Positions 28,871 through 37,364 of a stretch of DNA of 64,000 bases are shown here, in pieces. The translations under genes and the position numbers were made by a program. Origin of the DNA: Gemmatimonadales bacterium. GTDB lineage: Bacteria > Gemmatimonadota > Gemmatimonadetes > Gemmatimonadales > GWC2-71-9. The DNA lies in assembly GCA_041615815.1 (NCBI GenBank), contig JBFJCP010000018.1:31350-95349 (forward strand), read 5' to 3'. Within the stretch, counting starts at the first letter, position 1; every line of letters starts with the position of its first letter. The notes under the pieces were generated by a model that had not been told where the DNA came from, searched no databases, and saw only the letters and a list, made by a program, of their open reading frames with translations.

Positions 28871-30102
28871 ACACGAGTGTGACGAGAATGTTGCTGATCG
28901 CCGGCAGCGTGTGCATCGGATCGTCGGGCACGGCCCAAGAAGCAACGGATACGGTCGCGCTCGTGGGTGCCACAGTGGTCGATCCGGGGCGCGGTCGATC
29001 GCTGGCGAACGCCACGGTGCTGGTGGCCCATGGAAAGATCCTGCGTGTCACCGACACGCCGGGTGCGCCTCCCGCGGGAGTGCGTGTGATCCGTCTGGAC
29101 GGCCGCTACCTCGTACCCGGACTCGTTGATGGGCACGTGCACATCACCGATTTCGCAAGTGCTCGCCGGGCGCTGCACTCCGGCGTTACCACCGCCCGGA
29201 GCATGGGGGTCTCCCACTTTGCGGACGTGGGGCTGCGGGAGCTTGCGCGGGCTGGCGTCGTGGAGTCGCCGGAGATCCTCGCTGCCGGGTATCACGTCCG
29301 TCCGGAACCGGCAGAAGCGCTGTTTCTCGACGAACCCATGTTGGCGGATCTCATGCAAACAGGCGTCCACGGTGAGCTCGCCATGCGCCGGATGGGGCGG
29401 GTGATGATCGAGCGCGGGGTCGATTTCATCAAGACGAATGCCACCGAACGGGCAGGTCTTCCCGAGACGGATCCGCGGAAGCCGTTCTACAATGAAGCAG
29501 AATTGCGAGCGTTGGTGGAAGAGGCGCGGGCGGCGGAGATCCCGGTGGCTGCGCATGCCCACGGCGACGCCGGTGGCCGCGCGGCGGTGTTGGCGGGCGT
29601 CCGCAGTATCGAACACGGGACGTACCTGAGCAGCGAAACGCTCACGCTCATGGCGGAGCGGGGGACCTATCTGGTCCCCACGATCGCCGTGGTCTCGGAT
29701 CTGACGGTGCCAGGCGGTGATTACGACAATCCGGTGCTCAATATCCGCGGCCGACATATGCTCCCGAGGGTGCGCGAGATGGCGGCACAGGCACACCGAC
29801 GCCGCGTTCGGATCGTGGCGGCTACGGACACCGGGTACGGGCCGGGGAGCGTTCTGCGCCTGAGCCACGAGTTGATCGAGCTCGTGGGGATTGGCATGTC
29901 GCCCATGGAAGCCATCCAGTCGGCCACGACCGTGGCCGCGGAGTTGCTCGGTGTCGCGGACCATACCGGGCGCATCGCGCGCGGCTTGGACGCGGATCTC
30001 CTCGTCTTGGAGCGCAACCCGCTCGAGGACATTGGTGCTTATCAAGACGTGCTGATGGTGATCAACGACGGGAAGATCGTGGTCGATCGAACGTCATGGT
30101 GA
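28867..30102 (+). CDS. Metal-dependent amidohydrolase (Xaa-Pro dipeptidase-like), exported
   Basis: PGLVDGHVH, IK, AAHAHG, SIEHG, ATD; signal peptide. Confidence 0.88.
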   Translation: MNTSVTRMLLIAGSVCIGSSGTAQEATDTVALVGATVVDPGRGRSLANATVLVAHGKILRVTDTPGAPPAGVRVIRLDGRYLVPGLVDGHVHITDFASARRALHSGVTTARSMGVSHFADVGLRELARAGVVESPEILAAGYHVRPEPAEALFLDEPMLADLMQTGVHGELAMRRMGRVMIERGVDFIKTNATERAGLPETDPRKPFYNEAELRALVEEARAAEIPVAAHAHGDAGGRAAVLAGVRSIEHGTYLSSETLTLMAERGTYLVPTIAVVSDLTVPGGDYDNPVLNIRGRHMLPRVREMAAQAHRRRVRIVAATDTGYGPGSVLRLSHELIELVGIGMSPMEAIQSATTVAAELLGVADHTGRIARGLDADLLVLERNPLEDIGAYQDVLMVINDGKIVVDRTSW

Positions 30103-30227
30103 CCAAATGGGCAGAGGGCAGAGAGCGGTACGGATGTGAGTAGATGGCACAGGGTGAAGAATGCCGGTGAGAGGGCCGAGCCGCGCAGTGAGAGCTCGGA
30201 GTGCTGAAGTCAGGACCTTGTACGCAG

Positions 30228-30255
30228 AAGAAGAAAGCGCCGGCTCCCCGGCGCT
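30228..30255 (-). terminator. Probable intrinsic terminator downstream of the long GspE gene
   Basis: Stem AGCGCCGG-CTCC-CCGGCGCT followed on the minus strand by a UUCUUCUU tract. Confidence 0.55.
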
Positions 30256-30300
30256 CGGTGCATGAGAAAACGGTAGTCCCTGTGGCCTGTGCTCTCGACG

Positions 30301-33300
30301 CTAGGCCTTCGCTCGCCGGTCCGATGTGTCGCGGCGTTCGATTCCACTCCGGCGGCTGACACCGCGACGCCGCTCGCCACGGCGACGATCCCGTGCCGCT
30401 CGCCGCTCGAAGGCCACTGGCTCGGCCAAACGGCGGCGATCGAGGTAGCGGCGATCTTCGCCGGCTCGCCGATCCCGTCCCGCCCGCCGATCGGACCGTA
30501 CACCCCAGGACGACAATTTGCGCCGTTGAGCGACGCGCCGCTCTCGCTGCTGTGTGTTCGTCGTGCCGTTCATACCGTCGTTCCGTTGGTCGGAAGGAGG
30601 TGTGGGCGGCGCCACGTGCTGTCGCGCGTGCCCGGCGAGACCGTTGGCGCCGTTTGCATGCCCGTTCACTGGCGCACCATGCCCGTTCACTGGCTTGGTC
30701 GTACCACCGGCGGCGGACGGTCCCGCATGCCCGTTCGCTGGAGGAGCGTACCCACTGGCGGGTGGGACGTGCCCATTGGCCGGAGGGGCATGCCCATTGG
30801 CAGGGGCAGCGTGACCGTTGATGTGGCCACCGTTCGGTGCCGGATGCCCATTGACCGGTTTCATTTGGCTCTTGATGCCATTTGGCCCTGCAGCGGGGGG
30901 CGGGTGGCTCGCACCGTTCACGATGGGGCCGCCATTGGGATGCCCATTGGGGTGGGCCACACCATTCGCTTTCGGTGACCACGAAGATGCCCCCTTGGAC
31001 GGTGCTGTAGCGCCGTTCACGTCGGCACTCGGTCCCGCGGGTGCGGGCGGTCGCGTGTCGCTCGGCGGGGGCGAGGTGCTCTGGGAGTGCCAATCCGGCG
31101 GCGCGTGGTACGGCGTGGTTGGCGCCGCTGGCGGGGTGTTGCCTCCCGCTCCTTGCTGCGGCCATGCCGGACCGCTACTGGGTGCACCCTGATACCCGGT
31201 GCCGGCGGCAACGGGTTGCTGAACCGGCTGTCGCGGCTGCGCGGGCGGTTGGGGCGGGGGTGCCGCCGCCTGTGGCGCCGGCTGGTACGTGTAATTCACA
31301 CTCGGGCCGTGGGGTCCCCACGGACTTGGCGTCTGGAAGGGAGAGGGCGCCTGGTACGGAGCGCTAAACCCGCTGGGACCCCAGGCCGGAGGTGTATGAT
31401 AGACCGGGCCCGTCCCCACCGGCGGCCAGACCTGGGGAGCGTACTGGAACACGCCCGGATAGTGTCCCGGTAGTGGTGTTGGTTGATAGAAGACGGCGTG
31501 GCTGTACTGCGCCGCCACTTGCGGTGGCTGGTACATCTGCGGCATCACCGCTTGGCCGTACGCGTACGGATACATCTGTGGGGGCATCGGCGGGCCACCA
31601 TGCTGCCCCTCGACGACGACCACCATCACTTTGACGTCCGGCGGCACCTGAATGTTCTTGACACCGTGACCGGAGTCGAGGCGTACCTCCATTGTCCCGG
31701 GATCGTGTCCCGAGGGTCCAATGTGAATGTTGCCGTGGCCGGGACCGTCCTGCGGCTGTCGCGGCGGTTCTTCCGGCGGCTGCTGGAACCGGCCCCCCTG
31801 GTATCCACTGGGCGGCTGCTGTGGTTCGCGCGGCGGGTGGTACGCCGCCGCGGAAGGATCTGTCGATCCTGCCGGCCCGTGGACATATCCCGATGGCTGT
31901 TGATGGGGCGGTGCCGGCTGTTGGGACTGCGCCGGTTGCTCGTATTGCGGCGCCGGCTGCTGGTATGGTGGTGCCGGCGGTTGGTACGGCGGCGCCGGCT
32001 GGTCTTGTGGCGCGTGGTGCTGGTACTCGGGCGCGGGCTGCTGATACGGCGGCACCGGCTCGCGATACTCGGGAACCGGCTGCTCGTACGGCTCGGGCTG
32101 CTCGTAGCGCTCGGGCTCGGGTGCCGGCTCGGGCGCCTGGTAGTGCACGGCCGGTGCCGGCTCGACGGGTTCGGCCGGAAATGCGACGGGGCTCGGGGCG
32201 GCGAGTGGTGGTGACGTGGCCGGCTCGGCAGCCGATGGAGCTGCCATTTCCAGCGGCGCGTCCACAACGCGGAGCAACTCGTCGATCGTCGACTCACCGC
32301 GGAGGACGTGCGCCAAGCCACTCTCCCACAGAGAGTGCATTCCGCCCCGCCGCGCCGCCTGGGCGATCTTGTCCACCGTCTCTCCGGTCGCGATGAGGTG
32401 TTCCAATTCGGGTGTAACCGTCAACACCTCGAGGATTGCGAACCGGCCTCGGTAGCCGGTCATCGCGCACTTGGGACACCCCACGGCACGGTAGAGCGGT
32501 GTGTCGGTCTGAATCCACTGCTGAAGCTTGGGCGGTGCGGGTTCGAGCGCCACGTCTTTGCAGGCGGGACAGAGTTTACGCATCAAGCGTTGCGCCAGCA
32601 CACCTCGCACCGCGGTCGCGATCTTGTAGCTCTCGATGCCGATGTCCATAAGTCGCGCGACGGCGCTCGGCGCGTCGTTGGTGTGCAGCGTCGAGAGGAC
32701 GAGGTGGCCGGTGAGCGATGCTTGGACGGCGATTTGTGCGGTCTCTCGGTCGCGAATCTCACCGACGAGGACGACGTCGGGATCTTGTCGCAGGATCGAG
32801 CGGAGCGCGGAAGCGAAAGTGAGGCCGGCTTTCTCGTGGACCTGGACCTGCACGATGCCCTTGAGGCGGTACTCAACCGGATCCTCGACCGTAATGATGT
32901 TGACACCCTCGCTCTGGACATGACGGATGGCCGAGTAGAGTGTCGTGGTCTTCCCGGATCCGGTGGGTCCCGTGACGAGGATGACGCCATCACGATTGGC
33001 GAGGAGATCTTTGACTGCCTGGTCCTCGTCCGGGTTGAACCCCATCTTCTCCAACTCGAGGACGGACTTGGACGAATCGAGGATCCGGATCACGACCTTC
33101 TCGCCGAGGGCCGCCGGCAAGGTGGACACGCGAAGATCCACCGGTTGTCCGTTGATCGCGACCCGAGCGCGGCCGTCCTGGGGTCGGAGCCGATCCGCGA
33201 TATCCATCCGCGACATGATCTTGATGCGCGAGATGAGCGGCATGCCTACGCGCCGTGGCAGCGCCATGACCTGTCGGAGCACACCGTCGATGCGGTAGCG

Positions 33301-34128
33301 GACCGCTATCCCGTTTTGCTCCGGCTCGATGTGGATGTCGCTCGCGCGGGTCTTGATGCCCTCGGACAACAAATGGTCCACCATGCGGACCACCGGCCCG
33401 ATGGACGCCTCCTTGTTCCACGCGTTGAGCTCCTCGGCTTCGTCGGCTTCCTTGATCTGCGTCACTTCGGTGCCGGTGTCCATGCCTTGGAGCAGCTGAT
33501 CGATGACGCTCTCGGGTCGATAGAGCTCGTTCAGTTTTTCCGCAATCGCAGTCGGCGCGGAGAGGAGCATCCGCACTTTGCGGCTCGTCGCGAACGCCAG
33601 CGTATTCTCGCAGTCGATGTCGAACGGGTTGGCCGTGGCGATTTCCAGATACCCGTCCGTCGCACGCAGGGGGACGATCTGGTAGCGTCGGGCCACCTGC
33701 TCCGGCACCATGGCGACGGCCTGGGAGCTGCACTCGGAGAGGTCGGCAATGGGGATGCCCGTGCGGGTCGAGAGGTCCTGCAGCGCCTGATCCGCGGCCA
33801 CGCGCGTCGATGTCGTTTGACGATGGACGGCCTCTACGTTGGGGGGCGGGGGTGGTCCCTCCGACGGCCCCATGGGCTGGGTCGCCGCTGGAGCGCGTCC
33901 ATCATGCGAGGGCCGAGGGCTGGGGAGATCGCTCTTGGCGTCTTGGAGGTGGGTCAGGAATGCGGGTGGCCACGGCGTGGGGCGCCCGGATGGACCGGTC
34001 CCATCCCCGTCGAGCCGGTCGGCTCCCACGAGGCGACGCAACGAGGGCAGCCAACTCCCCGAGCCGTCTGGGGGGATGGACTGCACTCCTGGCTGCTCGC
34101 TCTTGTCGAGCGAATTAGGGCGCGTCAT
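30301..34128 (-). CDS. GspE/PulE/PilB-family ATPase with a ~650-aa low-complexity C-terminal extension
   Basis: GPTGSGKTT, EDPVEY, LRQDPDVVLVGEIRD, GHLVLSTLHTND, CPAC...CPKC Zn site, GYRGR; uninterrupted frame to the stop at 30301; AGGA RBS before ATG 34128. Confidence 0.9.
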   Translation of the reverse strand: MTRPNSLDKSEQPGVQSIPPDGSGSWLPSLRRLVGADRLDGDGTGPSGRPTPWPPAFLTHLQDAKSDLPSPRPSHDGRAPAATQPMGPSEGPPPPPNVEAVHRQTTSTRVAADQALQDLSTRTGIPIADLSECSSQAVAMVPEQVARRYQIVPLRATDGYLEIATANPFDIDCENTLAFATSRKVRMLLSAPTAIAEKLNELYRPESVIDQLLQGMDTGTEVTQIKEADEAEELNAWNKEASIGPVVRMVDHLLSEGIKTRASDIHIEPEQNGIAVRYRIDGVLRQVMALPRRVGMPLISRIKIMSRMDIADRLRPQDGRARVAINGQPVDLRVSTLPAALGEKVVIRILDSSKSVLELEKMGFNPDEDQAVKDLLANRDGVILVTGPTGSGKTTTLYSAIRHVQSEGVNIITVEDPVEYRLKGIVQVQVHEKAGLTFASALRSILRQDPDVVLVGEIRDRETAQIAVQASLTGHLVLSTLHTNDAPSAVARLMDIGIESYKIATAVRGVLAQRLMRKLCPACKDVALEPAPPKLQQWIQTDTPLYRAVGCPKCAMTGYRGRFAILEVLTVTPELEHLIATGETVDKIAQAARRGGMHSLWESGLAHVLRGESTIDELLRVVDAPLEMAAPSAAEPATSPPLAAPSPVAFPAEPVEPAPAVHYQAPEPAPEPERYEQPEPYEQPVPEYREPVPPYQQPAPEYQHHAPQDQPAPPYQPPAPPYQQPAPQYEQPAQSQQPAPPHQQPSGYVHGPAGSTDPSAAAYHPPREPQQPPSGYQGGRFQQPPEEPPRQPQDGPGHGNIHIGPSGHDPGTMEVRLDSGHGVKNIQVPPDVKVMVVVVEGQHGGPPMPPQMYPYAYGQAVMPQMYQPPQVAAQYSHAVFYQPTPLPGHYPGVFQYAPQVWPPVGTGPVYHTPPAWGPSGFSAPYQAPSPFQTPSPWGPHGPSVNYTYQPAPQAAAPPPQPPAQPRQPVQQPVAAGTGYQGAPSSGPAWPQQGAGGNTPPAAPTTPYHAPPDWHSQSTSPPPSDTRPPAPAGPSADVNGATAPSKGASSWSPKANGVAHPNGHPNGGPIVNGASHPPPAAGPNGIKSQMKPVNGHPAPNGGHINGHAAPANGHAPPANGHVPPASGYAPPANGHAGPSAAGGTTKPVNGHGAPVNGHANGANGLAGHARQHVAPPTPPSDQRNDGMNGTTNTQQRERRVAQRRKLSSWGVRSDRRAGRDRRAGEDRRYLDRRRLAEPVAFERRAARDRRRGERRRGVSRRSGIERRDTSDRRAKA

Positions 34129-34645
34129 TCGCCGTCCTATGACCAAGAGATGTGAATGGTCTGTGAGTCAGAGGGGCAAGCACCGGGCCGCGCGGCGTGC
34201 TGCTCCCCAACAGAACGCCGGCCCGGCCGAATCTCGTCCCAGGCGCTACTCGGTTTTGTTGCAACAACCACGCCAGCGTGACAACCGAAGAGTCGATGCG
34301 ACAGGCACATACGGTCGTTCCGCAAGGAAGGCGCCCACCACCGCGCAAGCCCGCTCAACCCTGGCAAATCCGGTGAAATGTGCCGCCGTTTCCGCACCAG
34401 TGGCGCGACGGTGCAACGAGACTGTACGAAGTCGAGTAATCGGAGGTCAGTGGTGTGGGAACCGTGCGACGATTCGGATGGCGACTCTGGGAAGGGCGCT
34501 GTCGCAGAGCCTCGACAGCCACGGGAGATGCCAGCGGGTTGCCGCCCCAATCGTTGCGGCAGTGCTCCCTCAGTTGGCCGCGCCCGCCCCGAGTGTGGCA
34601 CGCCCCGCGACCTCTGCCGGAGCGGGCGGCAGAGGAGCGACGGCC

Positions 34646-34685: not shown

Positions 34686-35270
34686 GTGGACGCGTGCGAC
34701 CGAGCGGGAGATCGAGAGCGTCGCCGAGATGACGGGGGCCAGACGGCACCGGCGATGAATCCGCTGGTGAGCCGCGCCCAAGACGGCGACCAGGCGGCGT
34801 TCGAGCAGCTGTATCGAGCGCACGTGGGACGAGTGTATGCCTTGTGTCTTCGTATGACGGCCGATCCCAGCCGGGCCGAGGAGTTGACGCAAGACGTCTT
34901 CGTCCGGACCTGGCGCAGGCTCGGGTCGTTTCGTGGCCGGAGCGCCTTCTCGTCGTGGCTCTACCGACTGACCGTGAACGTGGTGCTTGGAGCACTGCGG
35001 ACCGAGCGGCGCCGCGATCGACGTGTAACGCTGGCGGCGGACTTGGACGAGCTCGAGGTTGCGGCGCCGGCTCCGGCGGGCGGCACGGCGCTCGATCTGG
35101 AAGCGGGAATCCGCGCACTTCCGCCACGGGCTCGGACGGTTCTCGTGCTGCATGACATCGAAGGGTACACGCATGACGAAGTCGGCAAGCTGATGGACAT
35201 TGCGCCCGGAACGGCCAAGGCCCAGCTCCATCGTGCGCGCACCCTCTTGCGAGGCTGGCTGGAGCGATGA
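34686..35270 (+). CDS. ECF RNA polymerase sigma factor (sigma-70 group 4)
   Basis: GDQAAFEQLY, AEELTQDVF, FRGRSAFSSWLYR, LHDIEGY.H.E, GTAKAQLHRAR; the start could be ATG 34755. Confidence 0.93.
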   Translation: MDACDRAGDRERRRDDGGQTAPAMNPLVSRAQDGDQAAFEQLYRAHVGRVYALCLRMTADPSRAEELTQDVFVRTWRRLGSFRGRSAFSSWLYRLTVNVVLGALRTERRRDRRVTLAADLDELEVAAPAPAGGTALDLEAGIRALPPRARTVLVLHDIEGYTHDEVGKLMDIAPGTAKAQLHRARTLLRGWLER

Positions 35271-35908
35271 CACACCCCGACGCAACGAACCTGCACGAGT
35301 ATGCCGATGGGACACTTCCGGCGGCATCGGTGCCGGTGCTCGAAGGGCACCTGGAGGGCTGCGCCGCATGTCGTGAGGAGGTCGGGCGGCTCCGGCGCTA
35401 TCTGGCCGATGTCGCGCGGTTGCCGCGGAGCATCGAGCCCGGGCGCGATCTCTGGACCGACATTCAATCGAACTTGGTGGTGAGACGGAAACGTGACCCT
35501 ACGCATCCGTGGACTCGTCGCGTGGCACTCCTCGCCGCGGCGGTCGTGCTCGTCGTGATGTCCTCCGTGATCACACGGATGGTGGTGCAGCCTCGGGCGC
35601 CGACCCCGGCCATGGGACTCGATCGGGGGCCCGAGATGCTGGTCCGCTTTCAGCAAACCGAGCGCGAGTATGCCCGGGCGATTGCCGAGCTCGAAGAGGT
35701 GCTCGAAGTGGCCAGAAGCCGCTTGGCGCCGGAGACCGTGGTCCTGATCGAACGCAACCTGGCTGTCATCGATGCTGCGATTGACGAAGCCCGAATGACT
35801 ATCGCTCAGGATTCAGCTGGTGTGGAAGTGTTGGTGATGCTCACCCAACGGTACGAAGACAAGCTCGAGCTGTTGCGGCGCGTGACAAGGCTGGCCACTC
35901 AAAGTTAG
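35267..35908 (+). CDS. Zinc-finger (HxxxCxxC) anti-sigma factor with one TM helix
   Basis: HLEGCAAC ZAS motif, TM helix, periplasmic helical tail; ATGA overlap with the sigma gene. Confidence 0.88.
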   Translation: MTHPDATNLHEYADGTLPAASVPVLEGHLEGCAACREEVGRLRRYLADVARLPRSIEPGRDLWTDIQSNLVVRRKRDPTHPWTRRVALLAAAVVLVVMSSVITRMVVQPRAPTPAMGLDRGPEMLVRFQQTEREYARAIAELEEVLEVARSRLAPETVVLIERNLAVIDAAIDEARMTIAQDSAGVEVLVMLTQRYEDKLELLRRVTRLATQS

Positions 35909-35917
35909 GGTCGAGGC

Positions 35918-36787
35918 ATGAAACGACTGATGCTGTTGTTGCTCGGTGGCATGACGTTGGCAAACGGTGTGCTCACCGCCCAGGAGCGCGTTGCGGTGGG
36001 GCGCGGCGCGGCTCGTGACGGAACTATCAAGATCACGGCCGTGGCAGGTGTCATCCGTGTGGCCGGCTGGATGCGCGATTCGATTGCGGTGACGGGGACC
36101 ATCGGTACCGGGGTGGAACGAATCGAGGTCTTTGCCGATGACCGGACCGCCAGGGTGCAGGCTCACACTCCGCGATCCGTGGTCGACGTCGACTCCACTC
36201 TGGAGGTGAATCTCGAGATTCGGGTTCCGCGAGGGAGCTATGTGGGCGTGCGGACCGTGACAGCGTCCGTGGAAGCGGAAGGTGTCGAGGGCGGTATCGA
36301 TGTGGAGTCCGAAACCGGCGACATCCGCGTCTTGCGTGGGGGTGTGCGGAACATCTATGCGGAGACGGCCGGTGGCAACGTCGACATTGCGGCGCGCTCC
36401 AAGCTCATCCGCGCCAAAACGGTGGATGGAAACATCGGCGTTCGTAATGCACTCGGCTTCGTGGAGCTCGCGACCGTGAGCGGCCGGATCGATCTCCAAG
36501 GAGAGGCGCTCTCGCAAGCCGAGCTGTCGAGTGTCTCCGGGGACATCCTATTCGACGGCTCGTTTGAGCGCGGCGCGTTCGCGTTCTCGGTTCAGACCCA
36601 CGGCGGCACCATCGAGCTACGTCTTCCGGCCACTCTCGTTGCGGATTTCGACGTACGCGTGCTGAAGGGGCGCCTGGAAAACGAATTCGGACCCGCCACC
36701 GGCGGGCTCTTCAGCACCGGTCGCGGTGGGCCGCGTCTCGATGTCACGAGCTTCAAAGGGAGGGTGCGACTCCTCAAGCGGCAATGA
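35918..36787 (+). CDS. DUF4097-like beta-strand repeat protein, exported
   Basis: Signal peptide; repeated T.SG.I motifs; typical third gene of ECF/ZAS operons. Confidence 0.82.
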   Translation: MKRLMLLLLGGMTLANGVLTAQERVAVGRGAARDGTIKITAVAGVIRVAGWMRDSIAVTGTIGTGVERIEVFADDRTARVQAHTPRSVVDVDSTLEVNLEIRVPRGSYVGVRTVTASVEAEGVEGGIDVESETGDIRVLRGGVRNIYAETAGGNVDIAARSKLIRAKTVDGNIGVRNALGFVELATVSGRIDLQGEALSQAELSSVSGDILFDGSFERGAFAFSVQTHGGTIELRLPATLVADFDVRVLKGRLENEFGPATGGLFSTGRGGPRLDVTSFKGRVRLLKRQ

Positions 36788-36793
36788 CGGTCG

Positions 36794-36829
36794 TTCAAAC
36801 CTTTCGGGCCCGGCAGCCATCACAAGAAC
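36794..36829 (+). promoter_or_regulatory. Second copy of the putative ECF promoter, TTCAAACC-N16-CATCACAAGAAC
   Basis: Matches 34646-34681 and lies 22 nt upstream of ATG 36852. Confidence 0.7.
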
Positions 36830-36851
36830 AACTCGTCAATTGGAGACCACC

Positions 36852-37364
36852 ATGTCCCGCAAACTACTCTGGAGTCTCGTCCCGATCGGTGTTGCCGCGG
36901 TGCTTTCCGTCTCTAGCGCCACGACGGCGCCCAAGGGGGCGCCGTGGATGTCATTGGAAATGCCGGTCAACCCCTTCGATGCGTCAACTCGCGGTGCCGC
37001 CTTCCTCGTCCACGCGTACCTCCACGAACGTCCCGTAGGGTTTCCGGCGGTAGGCTCGGCGGAGGGGCTCGTCGATGGAAAACGCCAGACGATCGCTCTC
37101 GAATTCCAAGAGACGTCTCGGCCCGGCGTGTACGCCGTGCACCCGCAGTGGCCATCGAAAGGGAACTGGATCCTGACGCTCGGGCTCAATGCCAATCGAG
37201 AGATGCCCTTCCTCCTGGTCGAGCTGGGGCCGAATGGCGGTGTCGGTGACGCAGCCGCGTATGACACCAAGATCAAAACCCTCGCCATCCGTTCGGTGCA
37301 ACTCATACAGGGCGGATTGAGCGCCGCGCAGATCGAGGCGACGCTTCGAGCCATGTCGGAGTAG
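36852..37364 (+). CDS. Hypothetical secreted protein
   Basis: GGAG RBS, signal peptide MSRKLLWSLVPIGVAAVL..., beta-rich body. Confidence 0.75.
   Translation: MSRKLLWSLVPIGVAAVLSVSSATTAPKGAPWMSLEMPVNPFDASTRGAAFLVHAYLHERPVGFPAVGSAEGLVDGKRQTIALEFQETSRPGVYAVHPQWPSKGNWILTLGLNANREMPFLLVELGPNGGVGDAAAYDTKIKTLAIRSVQLIQGGLSAAQIEATLRAMSE

Follow-up and report, generated by a model that had tools for sequence, protein, structure and literature searches.

Closest described systems

Pilus motors are normally controlled through their N-terminal MshEN domains or by separate regulators. Here we describe a gene on the minus strand of a 64,000-nucleotide stretch of contig JBFJCP010000018.1 from a Gemmatimonadales bacterium (the window), which encodes a PilB/GspE-family ATPase that runs on, past its core, into a very long C-terminal tail. 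The gene is genuine and adds a new form to a known family of motors, and its range is narrow.

With PilB and GspE the tailed ATPase shares the α/β subdomain of MshEN and a T2SSE core in which every catalytic and Zn motif is retained, but it falls below the equivalog cut-offs of both families, has no RLG motif, is encoded outside a pil or gsp operon, and carries a tail of 500–650 amino acids (aa). It also resembles the Gemmatimonadota ATPases in which a GspE/PilB core is combined with a receiver (REC) domain. Its core falls inside their clade with 70–79% identity, and these too are orphan genes, but the tailed protein has no REC, has the tail with its [D/E]RR module, and its N-terminal subdomain is replaced. 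We found no description of the Gemmatimonadota GspE/PilB-REC ATPases, of a tailed PilB or of a [D/E]RR family in the literature searched, which covered main texts from few subscription journals. The original prediction for this locus, a model's reading of the sequence, had called the architecture undescribed for PilB/GspE, in agreement with this search.

Cyanobacterial PilB, compared here by description, also has a C-terminal extension, a lineage-specific appendage that makes PilB1 an interaction hub; it differs from the present tail in that it is a docking site for Hfq, on the main motor encoded in pilBTC (PMC12288463). Rho of Bacteroides thetaiotaomicron is likewise a hexameric ATPase with a lineage-restricted intrinsically disordered region (IDR), in which short conserved blocks lie in variable spacers, and it receives nucleotide input through the IDR, a likeness that holds for the tailed ATPase by proposal (PMC13269538). 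The ATPase job of Rho is unrelated, though, its IDR is N-terminal with a KE-rich and N/Q-rich grammar, and condensation is demonstrated for Rho only. FUS-type proteins resemble the tail in having Tyr residues in a polar low-complexity region and a separate Arg-rich block, but the tail is Pro-rich, lacks RGG, has its Arg pairs interleaved with acids and is conserved by position, and the FUS analogy fits poorly.

Gene and reading frame

The open reading frame (ORF) at 30301-34146 on the minus strand has 1281 stop-free codons. Its start is conserved at the ATG at 34128 (MTRP...), preceded by GGACGG at all three loci, and the product from this start has 1275 aa and a mass of 136.3 kDa computed from the sequence, with 654 residues beyond the ELLRV motif, in frame. 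The original prediction had described an intact ATPase running in frame into a tail of ~650 aa, a full-length product of ~135 kDa, a certain order of blocks and a terminator, all of which were recovered in the sequence. The features are the following (Pfam aa coordinates refer to the 1281-aa frame):

30301..34128, minus strand: coding sequence of the PilB/GspE-family ATPase with long C-terminal tail, 1275 aa (ORF, Pfam, orthologues)
34021..34128, minus strand: conserved peptide at the N-terminus, aa 1-36, with an amphipathic 11-mer, aa 25-35, at its end (alignment)
33511..33759, minus strand: MshEN domain, α/β part only (Pfam PF05157, E 6e-15)
32269..33408, minus strand: T2SSE ATPase core with Walker A (32947-32970), Asp box, Walker B, His box and four-Cys Zn site (PF00437, E 9e-137)
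32119..32259, minus strand: Pro/Ala/Glu linker, poorly conserved (alignment)
31909..32118, minus strand: Tyr-Pro-Gln heptads, a 21-bp tandem expansion found only in this genome (repeat scan, alignment)
31606..31740, minus strand: β island, aa 797-841, predicted three-strand meander (conservation, AlphaFold2)
31366..31518, minus strand: conserved Tyr/Trp/Pro/Gly block, aa 871-921 (conservation)
30619..31020, minus strand: Asn-Gly(-His) repeat region with conserved composition, each tail having 14-23 NG
30304..30552, minus strand: [D/E]RR repeat module, aa 1193-1275, ten triplets with a 5-6-residue period, homologue of standalone small proteins
30225..30256, minus strand: intrinsic-terminator-like hairpin (itself 30235-30256) and T-rich run

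Pfam places MshEN at aa 130-212 and T2SSE at aa 247-626, with nothing C-terminal of the latter. The Walker A, Asp box, Walker B, His box and tetracysteine motifs are intact in all three proteins scanned. Identities and the proportions of nonsynonymous (pN) and synonymous (pS) differences were computed from three DNA sequences, and for the core they were 84–87%, with pN 0.08–0.10 against pS 0.56–0.62. The best sequence matches of the core in the PDB are extension ATPases, PilB foremost, with E from 1e-124 to 1e-110 (PilB 6OLJ, 5TSG and 3JC8; GspE 4PHT). MshEN receptors of cyclic di-GMP (c-di-GMP) have tandem 24-residue RLGxxL motifs (PMC5013675). This motif (R[LI]GxxL) is absent from all four tailed orthologues, and both copies are present in the genome's canonical PilB. 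The place of the helical MshEN_N subdomain is taken by the N-terminal peptide, which is disordered. Its 11-mer (34024-34056, minus strand) has a hydrophobic moment of 0.54–0.67 in the four orthologues, ranking 1–6 among the first 100 windows of each, and the peptide is, judged from these properties, a possible membrane or partner anchor. We take the 11-mer to be reminiscent of a MinD-type membrane-targeting helix.

It is very unlikely that the tail is neutral read-through or an artefact of assembly, that is junk or a chimera, and this reading is largely refuted already. In its favour, high GC eases long open frames, and both the NGH and the Arg block have weak codon scores, with another frame scoring higher in the Arg block. 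On the other side, block order and islands are common to four species with pN far below pS, and not one of 2000 base shuffles of the tail was free of stops (mean 11.5 stops). One contig, X1, from a run that is possibly the source itself, covers 29900-32686 with zero differences, and the core-tail junction is bridged by contigs from two other studies, X6 (32097-32658) and X7 (32055-32418). None of the differences listed for the three contigs is an indel in the gene, and those listed for X6 in the tail (at least 11, with 4 further unlisted) comprise 6 synonymous, 5 missense and 0 stop changes. The bridging contigs from other studies, and the lack of a stop among the differences listed for X6, speak against a stop or misassembly after the ATPase core. 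Hairpins of a similar GCGCCGG..CCGGCGC type also lie 3' of both orthologues.

The tail and its orthologues

The two other genomes of the genus each have a tailed orthologue, and a further one comes from a fourth species-level cluster; the tails of these three measure 506, 533 and 557 aa. All four tails consist to 68–72% of P, Q, G, A, S, N and H, with 17–27 Tyr and, in the end block, 27–31 Arg (27 and 31, respectively, in this genome). The block order recurs in three further species, except that the heptads are missing from all three. In this genome the heptads bring a Tyr every seven residues at aa 681-702 and 715-729, over a 21-bp tandem array at 31929-32060, and the tail has five PY[QE] as compared to one, none and none in the orthologues. 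The heptads are thus private to one genome.

The conservation of the other blocks is very uneven. The linker is 19–41% identical, and the NGH region, 36–57% identical, is maintained mostly as composition; this genome's tail has 17 NG dipeptides and a 21-bp array at 30728-30801 under the NGH repeats. The β island (80–86% identity, pN 0.09–0.15, pS 0.55–0.68) and the Tyr/Trp block (73–86%, pN 0.07–0.15, pS 0.53–0.66) are, by these measures, conserved to the same degree as the ATPase core. The values for the [D/E]RR module are 69–74%, pN 0.23–0.25 and pS 0.66–0.80. When the four sequences were modelled with AlphaFold2 the island came out as a three-strand meander (pLDDT ~63) and the rest was unfolded. 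FoldIndex is below zero over 71–100% of the linker, NGH and Arg blocks and positive throughout aa 842-921, so that the tail, which was predicted to be disordered, is mostly so in these three blocks but not in aa 842-921.

The Tyr/Trp block contains 10–11 of the 30–39 aromatics of the tail, and since its individual positions are as conserved as those of the ATPase it suggests a specific interaction site more than dispersed stickers. As to the FUS-type grammar that the original prediction saw in the tail, there are 17–27 Tyr, but the tail is rich in Pro and its Tyr are clustered; there is no RGG, and the Tyr/Trp block is fixed in position. The Arg block, too, is something else than a FUS-type sticker, namely a [D/E]RR module of 5–6-residue period that exists as separate genes.

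Scans of Pfam and NCBIfam gave no family for the island, the aromatic block, the Arg module or the standalone proteins. Fold searches with the low-confidence island model gave nothing at E<=0.001 (best Z 2.9), and a search of the Atlas gave no usable match for the island. A profile of island plus aromatic block matched 3 of 401 genomes of the phylum, every one from this genus, and in a set of 1.84 billion cluster representatives it gave a single strong cluster. The tailed architecture is confined to one uncultured genus in the genomes searched. Two weak profile matches, P0016 and P0017, were unrelated repeat proteins and not tailed orthologues, and a scan of metagenome contigs gave 171 pattern matches, 0 of them confirmed. 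The cluster members P0012 and P0013 have internal deletions in the ATPase core, which are probably assembly collapses.

The [D/E]RR end module

The tail has ten [D/E]RR, whereas its residue-shuffled versions average 1.8, and none of 20000 shuffles reached ten. Standalone [D/E]RR genes were found in all three genomes of the genus, with a common head outside the repeats:

L071:337-588 (G000:C24), L073:2168-2407 and L074:2048-2311: standalone [D/E]RR genes of 79-87 aa with the head RR[WV]AQRRKL, likely donor family of the tail end

Compared with the tail end these genes score 160–165, above the at least 85 short database matches (maximum 149) and, for each gene, above all 1000 triplet-preserving shuffles, which suggests that the tail end was captured by fusion. 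It fits the standalone proteins in its 5–6-residue period, a central hydrophobic stretch and the head motif of the genus. The last 484 residues of the tail matched in 49 of 301 family genomes; outside the genus, among the matches listed, it is the Arg end that is covered, and where these were read they are mostly stand-alone ORFs of 80–140 aa.

A profile of the module (23 rows, with the best 8000 candidates scored per search) matched at least 85 short proteins and at least 34 longer ones. The triplets of the 85 short proteins are 5–6 residues apart in 361 of 534 gaps. The longer matches are 3 tailed ATPases, 4 adenylate cyclases, 1 sCache fragment, 3 REC proteins, 2 proteins with a LuxR-type helix-turn-helix, 5 cytidine deaminases, 1 DUF1576 protein, 1 YdhR protein and 14 without a Pfam match. 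Signalling proteins (adenylate cyclases, REC and LuxR-type proteins) are thus among those to which the module is fused. A sequence search of the PDB with the Arg profile gave 0 matches, AlphaFold2 gave no fold for the module (pTM 0.18), and the Atlas gave only unnamed hypothetical clusters, with scores of 0.77–0.78.

Three small proteins of this genome (G000:C11:101580-101975, C26:28676-29077, and C2 near 161700-162100) carry, behind their [D/E]RR repeats, a four-Cys, Zn-ribbon-like motif, and database relatives of these carry a REC domain in addition.

Origin of the tail

The genome holds three more paralogues, each with a receiver-like C-terminal domain, and Pfam confirms REC in two of these and in one paralogue of another genome of the genus (G001). 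In the tailed protein Pfam finds no REC (PF00072). The best-match loci from other genomes end in a linker and REC-like sequence in 16 of 17 cases, and the remaining one is cut by the end of its contig. It had been assumed that ATPases of this type normally end shortly after ELLRV; this baseline fails here because the nearest relatives carry a linker and REC, and cyanobacterial PilB is also extended. The tail looks like a domain swap, and not like an addition to a bare ATPase, because the closest relatives end in REC. A tree of 41 rows places the four tailed proteins in one clade (100/99), nested among REC paralogues, with a REC protein that has a Tyr/Pro/Gly-rich linker insert as its sister (100/87). 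Loss of REC in the tailed lineage is, from these comparisons, likely.

The sister REC paralogue lies at L075:5368-7788 (G001:C31) and is a possible intermediate. A second paralogue in this genome, a GspE/PilB-REC with 71% core identity, is found 30 kb from the tailed gene, at 1-1409 of the window on the minus strand and on to G000:C18:30509, so that its REC end falls outside the window. There are also other C-terminal variants (L054, L055, L069), in which a REC and, by eye, a GAF-like domain follow behind an ERRK/ERRR start; one copy runs into sequence that by eye is Nudix-like, possibly by read-through.

Proposed mechanism and alternatives

The reading that we tentatively prefer is that the tailed protein may be an inducible, alternative type IVa pilus extension ATPase, gated by a guanine-nucleotide messenger, probably c-di-GMP, that binds the [D/E]RR module. 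A genus-specific duplicate of a Gemmatimonadota PilB/GspE-REC ATPase would have exchanged its phospho-receiver for a long tether, which would bear two specific interaction patches, the β island and the aromatic block, and onto whose end a small standalone gene would have been captured as the [D/E]RR module. The protein would be made under sigma54 control and would presumably, like others of its family, be a hexamer that drives PilC, as an alternative extension ATPase on the single type IVa pilus machine of the cell. There is one secretin per genome in all six genomes, and one two-domain PilC in all five relatives, one of which has two extra single-domain matches; the pilC of this genome is unassembled because pilB runs off the contig end, and in G001 the canonical pilB-pilT-pilC operon is located elsewhere. 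It is conceivable that the Arg module folds on the messenger, most likely dimeric c-di-GMP, and that binding alters self-contacts of the tail or the binding of partners, and in this way gates the docking or position of the motor. The phrase "possibly nucleotide-gated" is the part of the original prediction that the evidence favours most.

Judged by sequence, the nearest characterised counterpart of the module is the arginine-rich region of Caulobacter Cle, which binds dimeric c-di-GMP through DRR-x11-(R/K)RxxD and a tandem [YF]xGP[DE][RK]R (PMC7382256, PMC5677366). Both are disordered, C-terminal, Arg-rich linear modules with DRR and RRxxD, and in both cases the carrier protein acts at a motor. 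They differ in that the tail has no tandem YxGP, a spacer of 10 and not 11, ten repeats and not two, and an ATPase and not CheY as carrier. DRR-x10-RRxxD occurs at one fixed position in all four orthologues, one residue short of x11, and a Cle-type [YW]xGP[DE]RR in 3 of 31 longer family matches. In the CSP peptide, a c-di-GMP binder with the x11 motif, single loop deletions still bind (Kd 338–1948 nM), and the Kd of the Tyr and Gly mutants is 4365 and 7657 nM (PMC7382256). The [D/E]RR module fails both Cle definitions and is thus not a Cle member, but by analogy it plausibly works like a Cle peptide.

Several observations weigh against this reading. The strict DRR-x11-(R/K)RxxD is found in none of the four orthologues and in 1 of 116 family matches; the tandem [YF]xGP[DE][RK]R is absent from the three proteins scanned and is not seen in the alignment of the fourth; and the Tyr and Gly important in CSP have no counterpart in the tail. 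The x10 match is partly a consequence of the 6+6+5 period of the repeat, and low-complexity Arg repeats may match one another through composition. Precomputed Pfam matches gave no GGDEF, EAL, PilZ or HD-GYP in the at least 34 longer family proteins. The core is below the NCBIfam equivalog cut-offs, with 541.9 against 675.65 for TIGR02538 (PilB) and 563.4 against 630.25 for TIGR02533 (GspE), and the neighbouring genes (amidohydrolase, dipeptidase, M28 peptidase, an extracytoplasmic function (ECF) sigma operon) include no pilus genes. Approximately unbiased tests did not reject monophyly of the REC proteins (p 0.40 and 0.16), and the direction of the swap therefore rests on the best tree and on the distribution.

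The original idea of a condensate or polar scaffold, in which aromatic-Arg contacts let the six tails of a ring self-associate and gather motors or partners into clusters, possibly under the influence of a ligand, is compatible with messenger gating and can be regarded as possible but rather doubtful. A polar low-complexity tail with many Tyr and an Arg-rich end in all four orthologues, FoldIndex below zero in the linker, NGH and Arg blocks, the general Tyr/Arg grammar (bioRxiv 2024.02.15.580391) and the precedent of Bacteroides Rho, in which a lineage-specific IDR drives condensation and binds ppGpp (PMC13269538), are what one would expect of it. The absence of RGG from all tails is not, nor are the acids in front of the Arg pairs (net charge +0.21 to +0.25 per residue) and the Pro content of ~19–23%; moreover, one third of the aromatics are in a single, positionally fixed block of 50 aa, and the heptads, the most sticker-like part, are missing from three of the four orthologues. 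That the Arg module instead binds polyanions (RNA, DNA, polyphosphate) or acidic protein surfaces, with the tail as a tether of the ATPase and no messenger gating, seems unlikely. The module is net positive with ~35% Arg, is unstructured in the AlphaFold2 model, and is also fused to cytidine deaminases and a YdhR protein, and the Hfq docking of cyanobacterial PilB (PMC12288463) would be a parallel, but a fixed D/E before each RR and the 5–6 spacing are more specific than a polycation requires.

We consider it still more unlikely that the protein is no motor but a modulator, which joins the REC paralogues in mixed rings and poisons or tunes these, or that the family serves a process other than pili. 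This would agree with the orphan gene, with the four non-canonical paralogues beside a canonical PilB in one genome, and with the replacement of MshEN_N by a disordered peptide, but every catalytic motif is kept under strong purifying selection, and a pilin-like gene adjoins one paralogue. A bolder form of messenger gating, which we regard as improbable, is that [D/E]RR is an undescribed mobile, multi-site c-di-GMP module, present by itself in the form of small sponge proteins and plugged as an input into cyclases, regulators and enzymes. Six copies per motor might then give a messenger-switched condensate, in which competition between the ligand and Tyr/Trp-Arg contacts would make a cluster of pilus motors form or disperse.

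In the preferred reading, a single pilus machine in this lineage would be served by several paralogous motors that differ in their C-terminal input, one of which would have exchanged REC for a tail of 500–650 aa. Should the end module bind a nucleotide messenger, the tail would represent a form of pilus-motor control and positioning not described before. Binding of c-di-GMP by the end module would assign a function to a widespread, unnamed repeat family and could help to explain signalling in a genome (96% complete) with 14 GGDEF matches and no PilZ match. If the tail condenses, the Rho precedent would be extended to a pilus ATPase.

Candidate promoter region and neighbouring genes

Three candidate regulatory sites were found upstream of the gene:

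34260..34275, minus strand: sigma54-type -24/-12 promoter-like site, 132 nt before the start, single match in the window
34398..34413, minus strand: conserved upstream element, candidate activator site, at three of three loci and unique in the genome
34500..34517, minus strand: imperfect palindrome TGTCG-N8-CGACA, conserved, candidate enhancer-binding-protein site

The -24/-12 consensus used for the first site is the one that we take to be standard for sigma54. On its own the match is non-significant, 1 in 64 kb against a chance mean of 0.22, and matched by 19 of 100 shuffles. The site and the two upstream elements are kept at all three loci, including the one with a different upstream gene, and the genome encodes sigma54. 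A scan for sigma70 promoters gave no site, and Rfam gave 0 matches in the window and six loci, and thus no known riboswitch.

The ATPase gene is monocistronic and lies between converging hydrolase genes and, at two of the three loci, a divergent ECF operon. This operon (34686-37364, plus strand) encodes an ECF sigma factor, a zinc-finger anti-sigma factor, a DUF4097 protein and a small unknown gene; an operon of this type is divergent from the ATPase gene here and in G001, not in G002. Elsewhere in the genome an operon (L070, G000:C23:71453-79998, minus strand) contains genes for a hybrid PAS-kinase-REC-Hpt protein, a GspE-REC, an unknown membrane protein, a pilin-like protein, a REC-HD regulator and a kinase-like protein, and its hybrid kinase has an N-terminal DRR..ERR pair. 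An orphan PilC/GspF-like gene of 285 aa lies at G000:C12:98283-99140 on the minus strand, outside any pilus operon.

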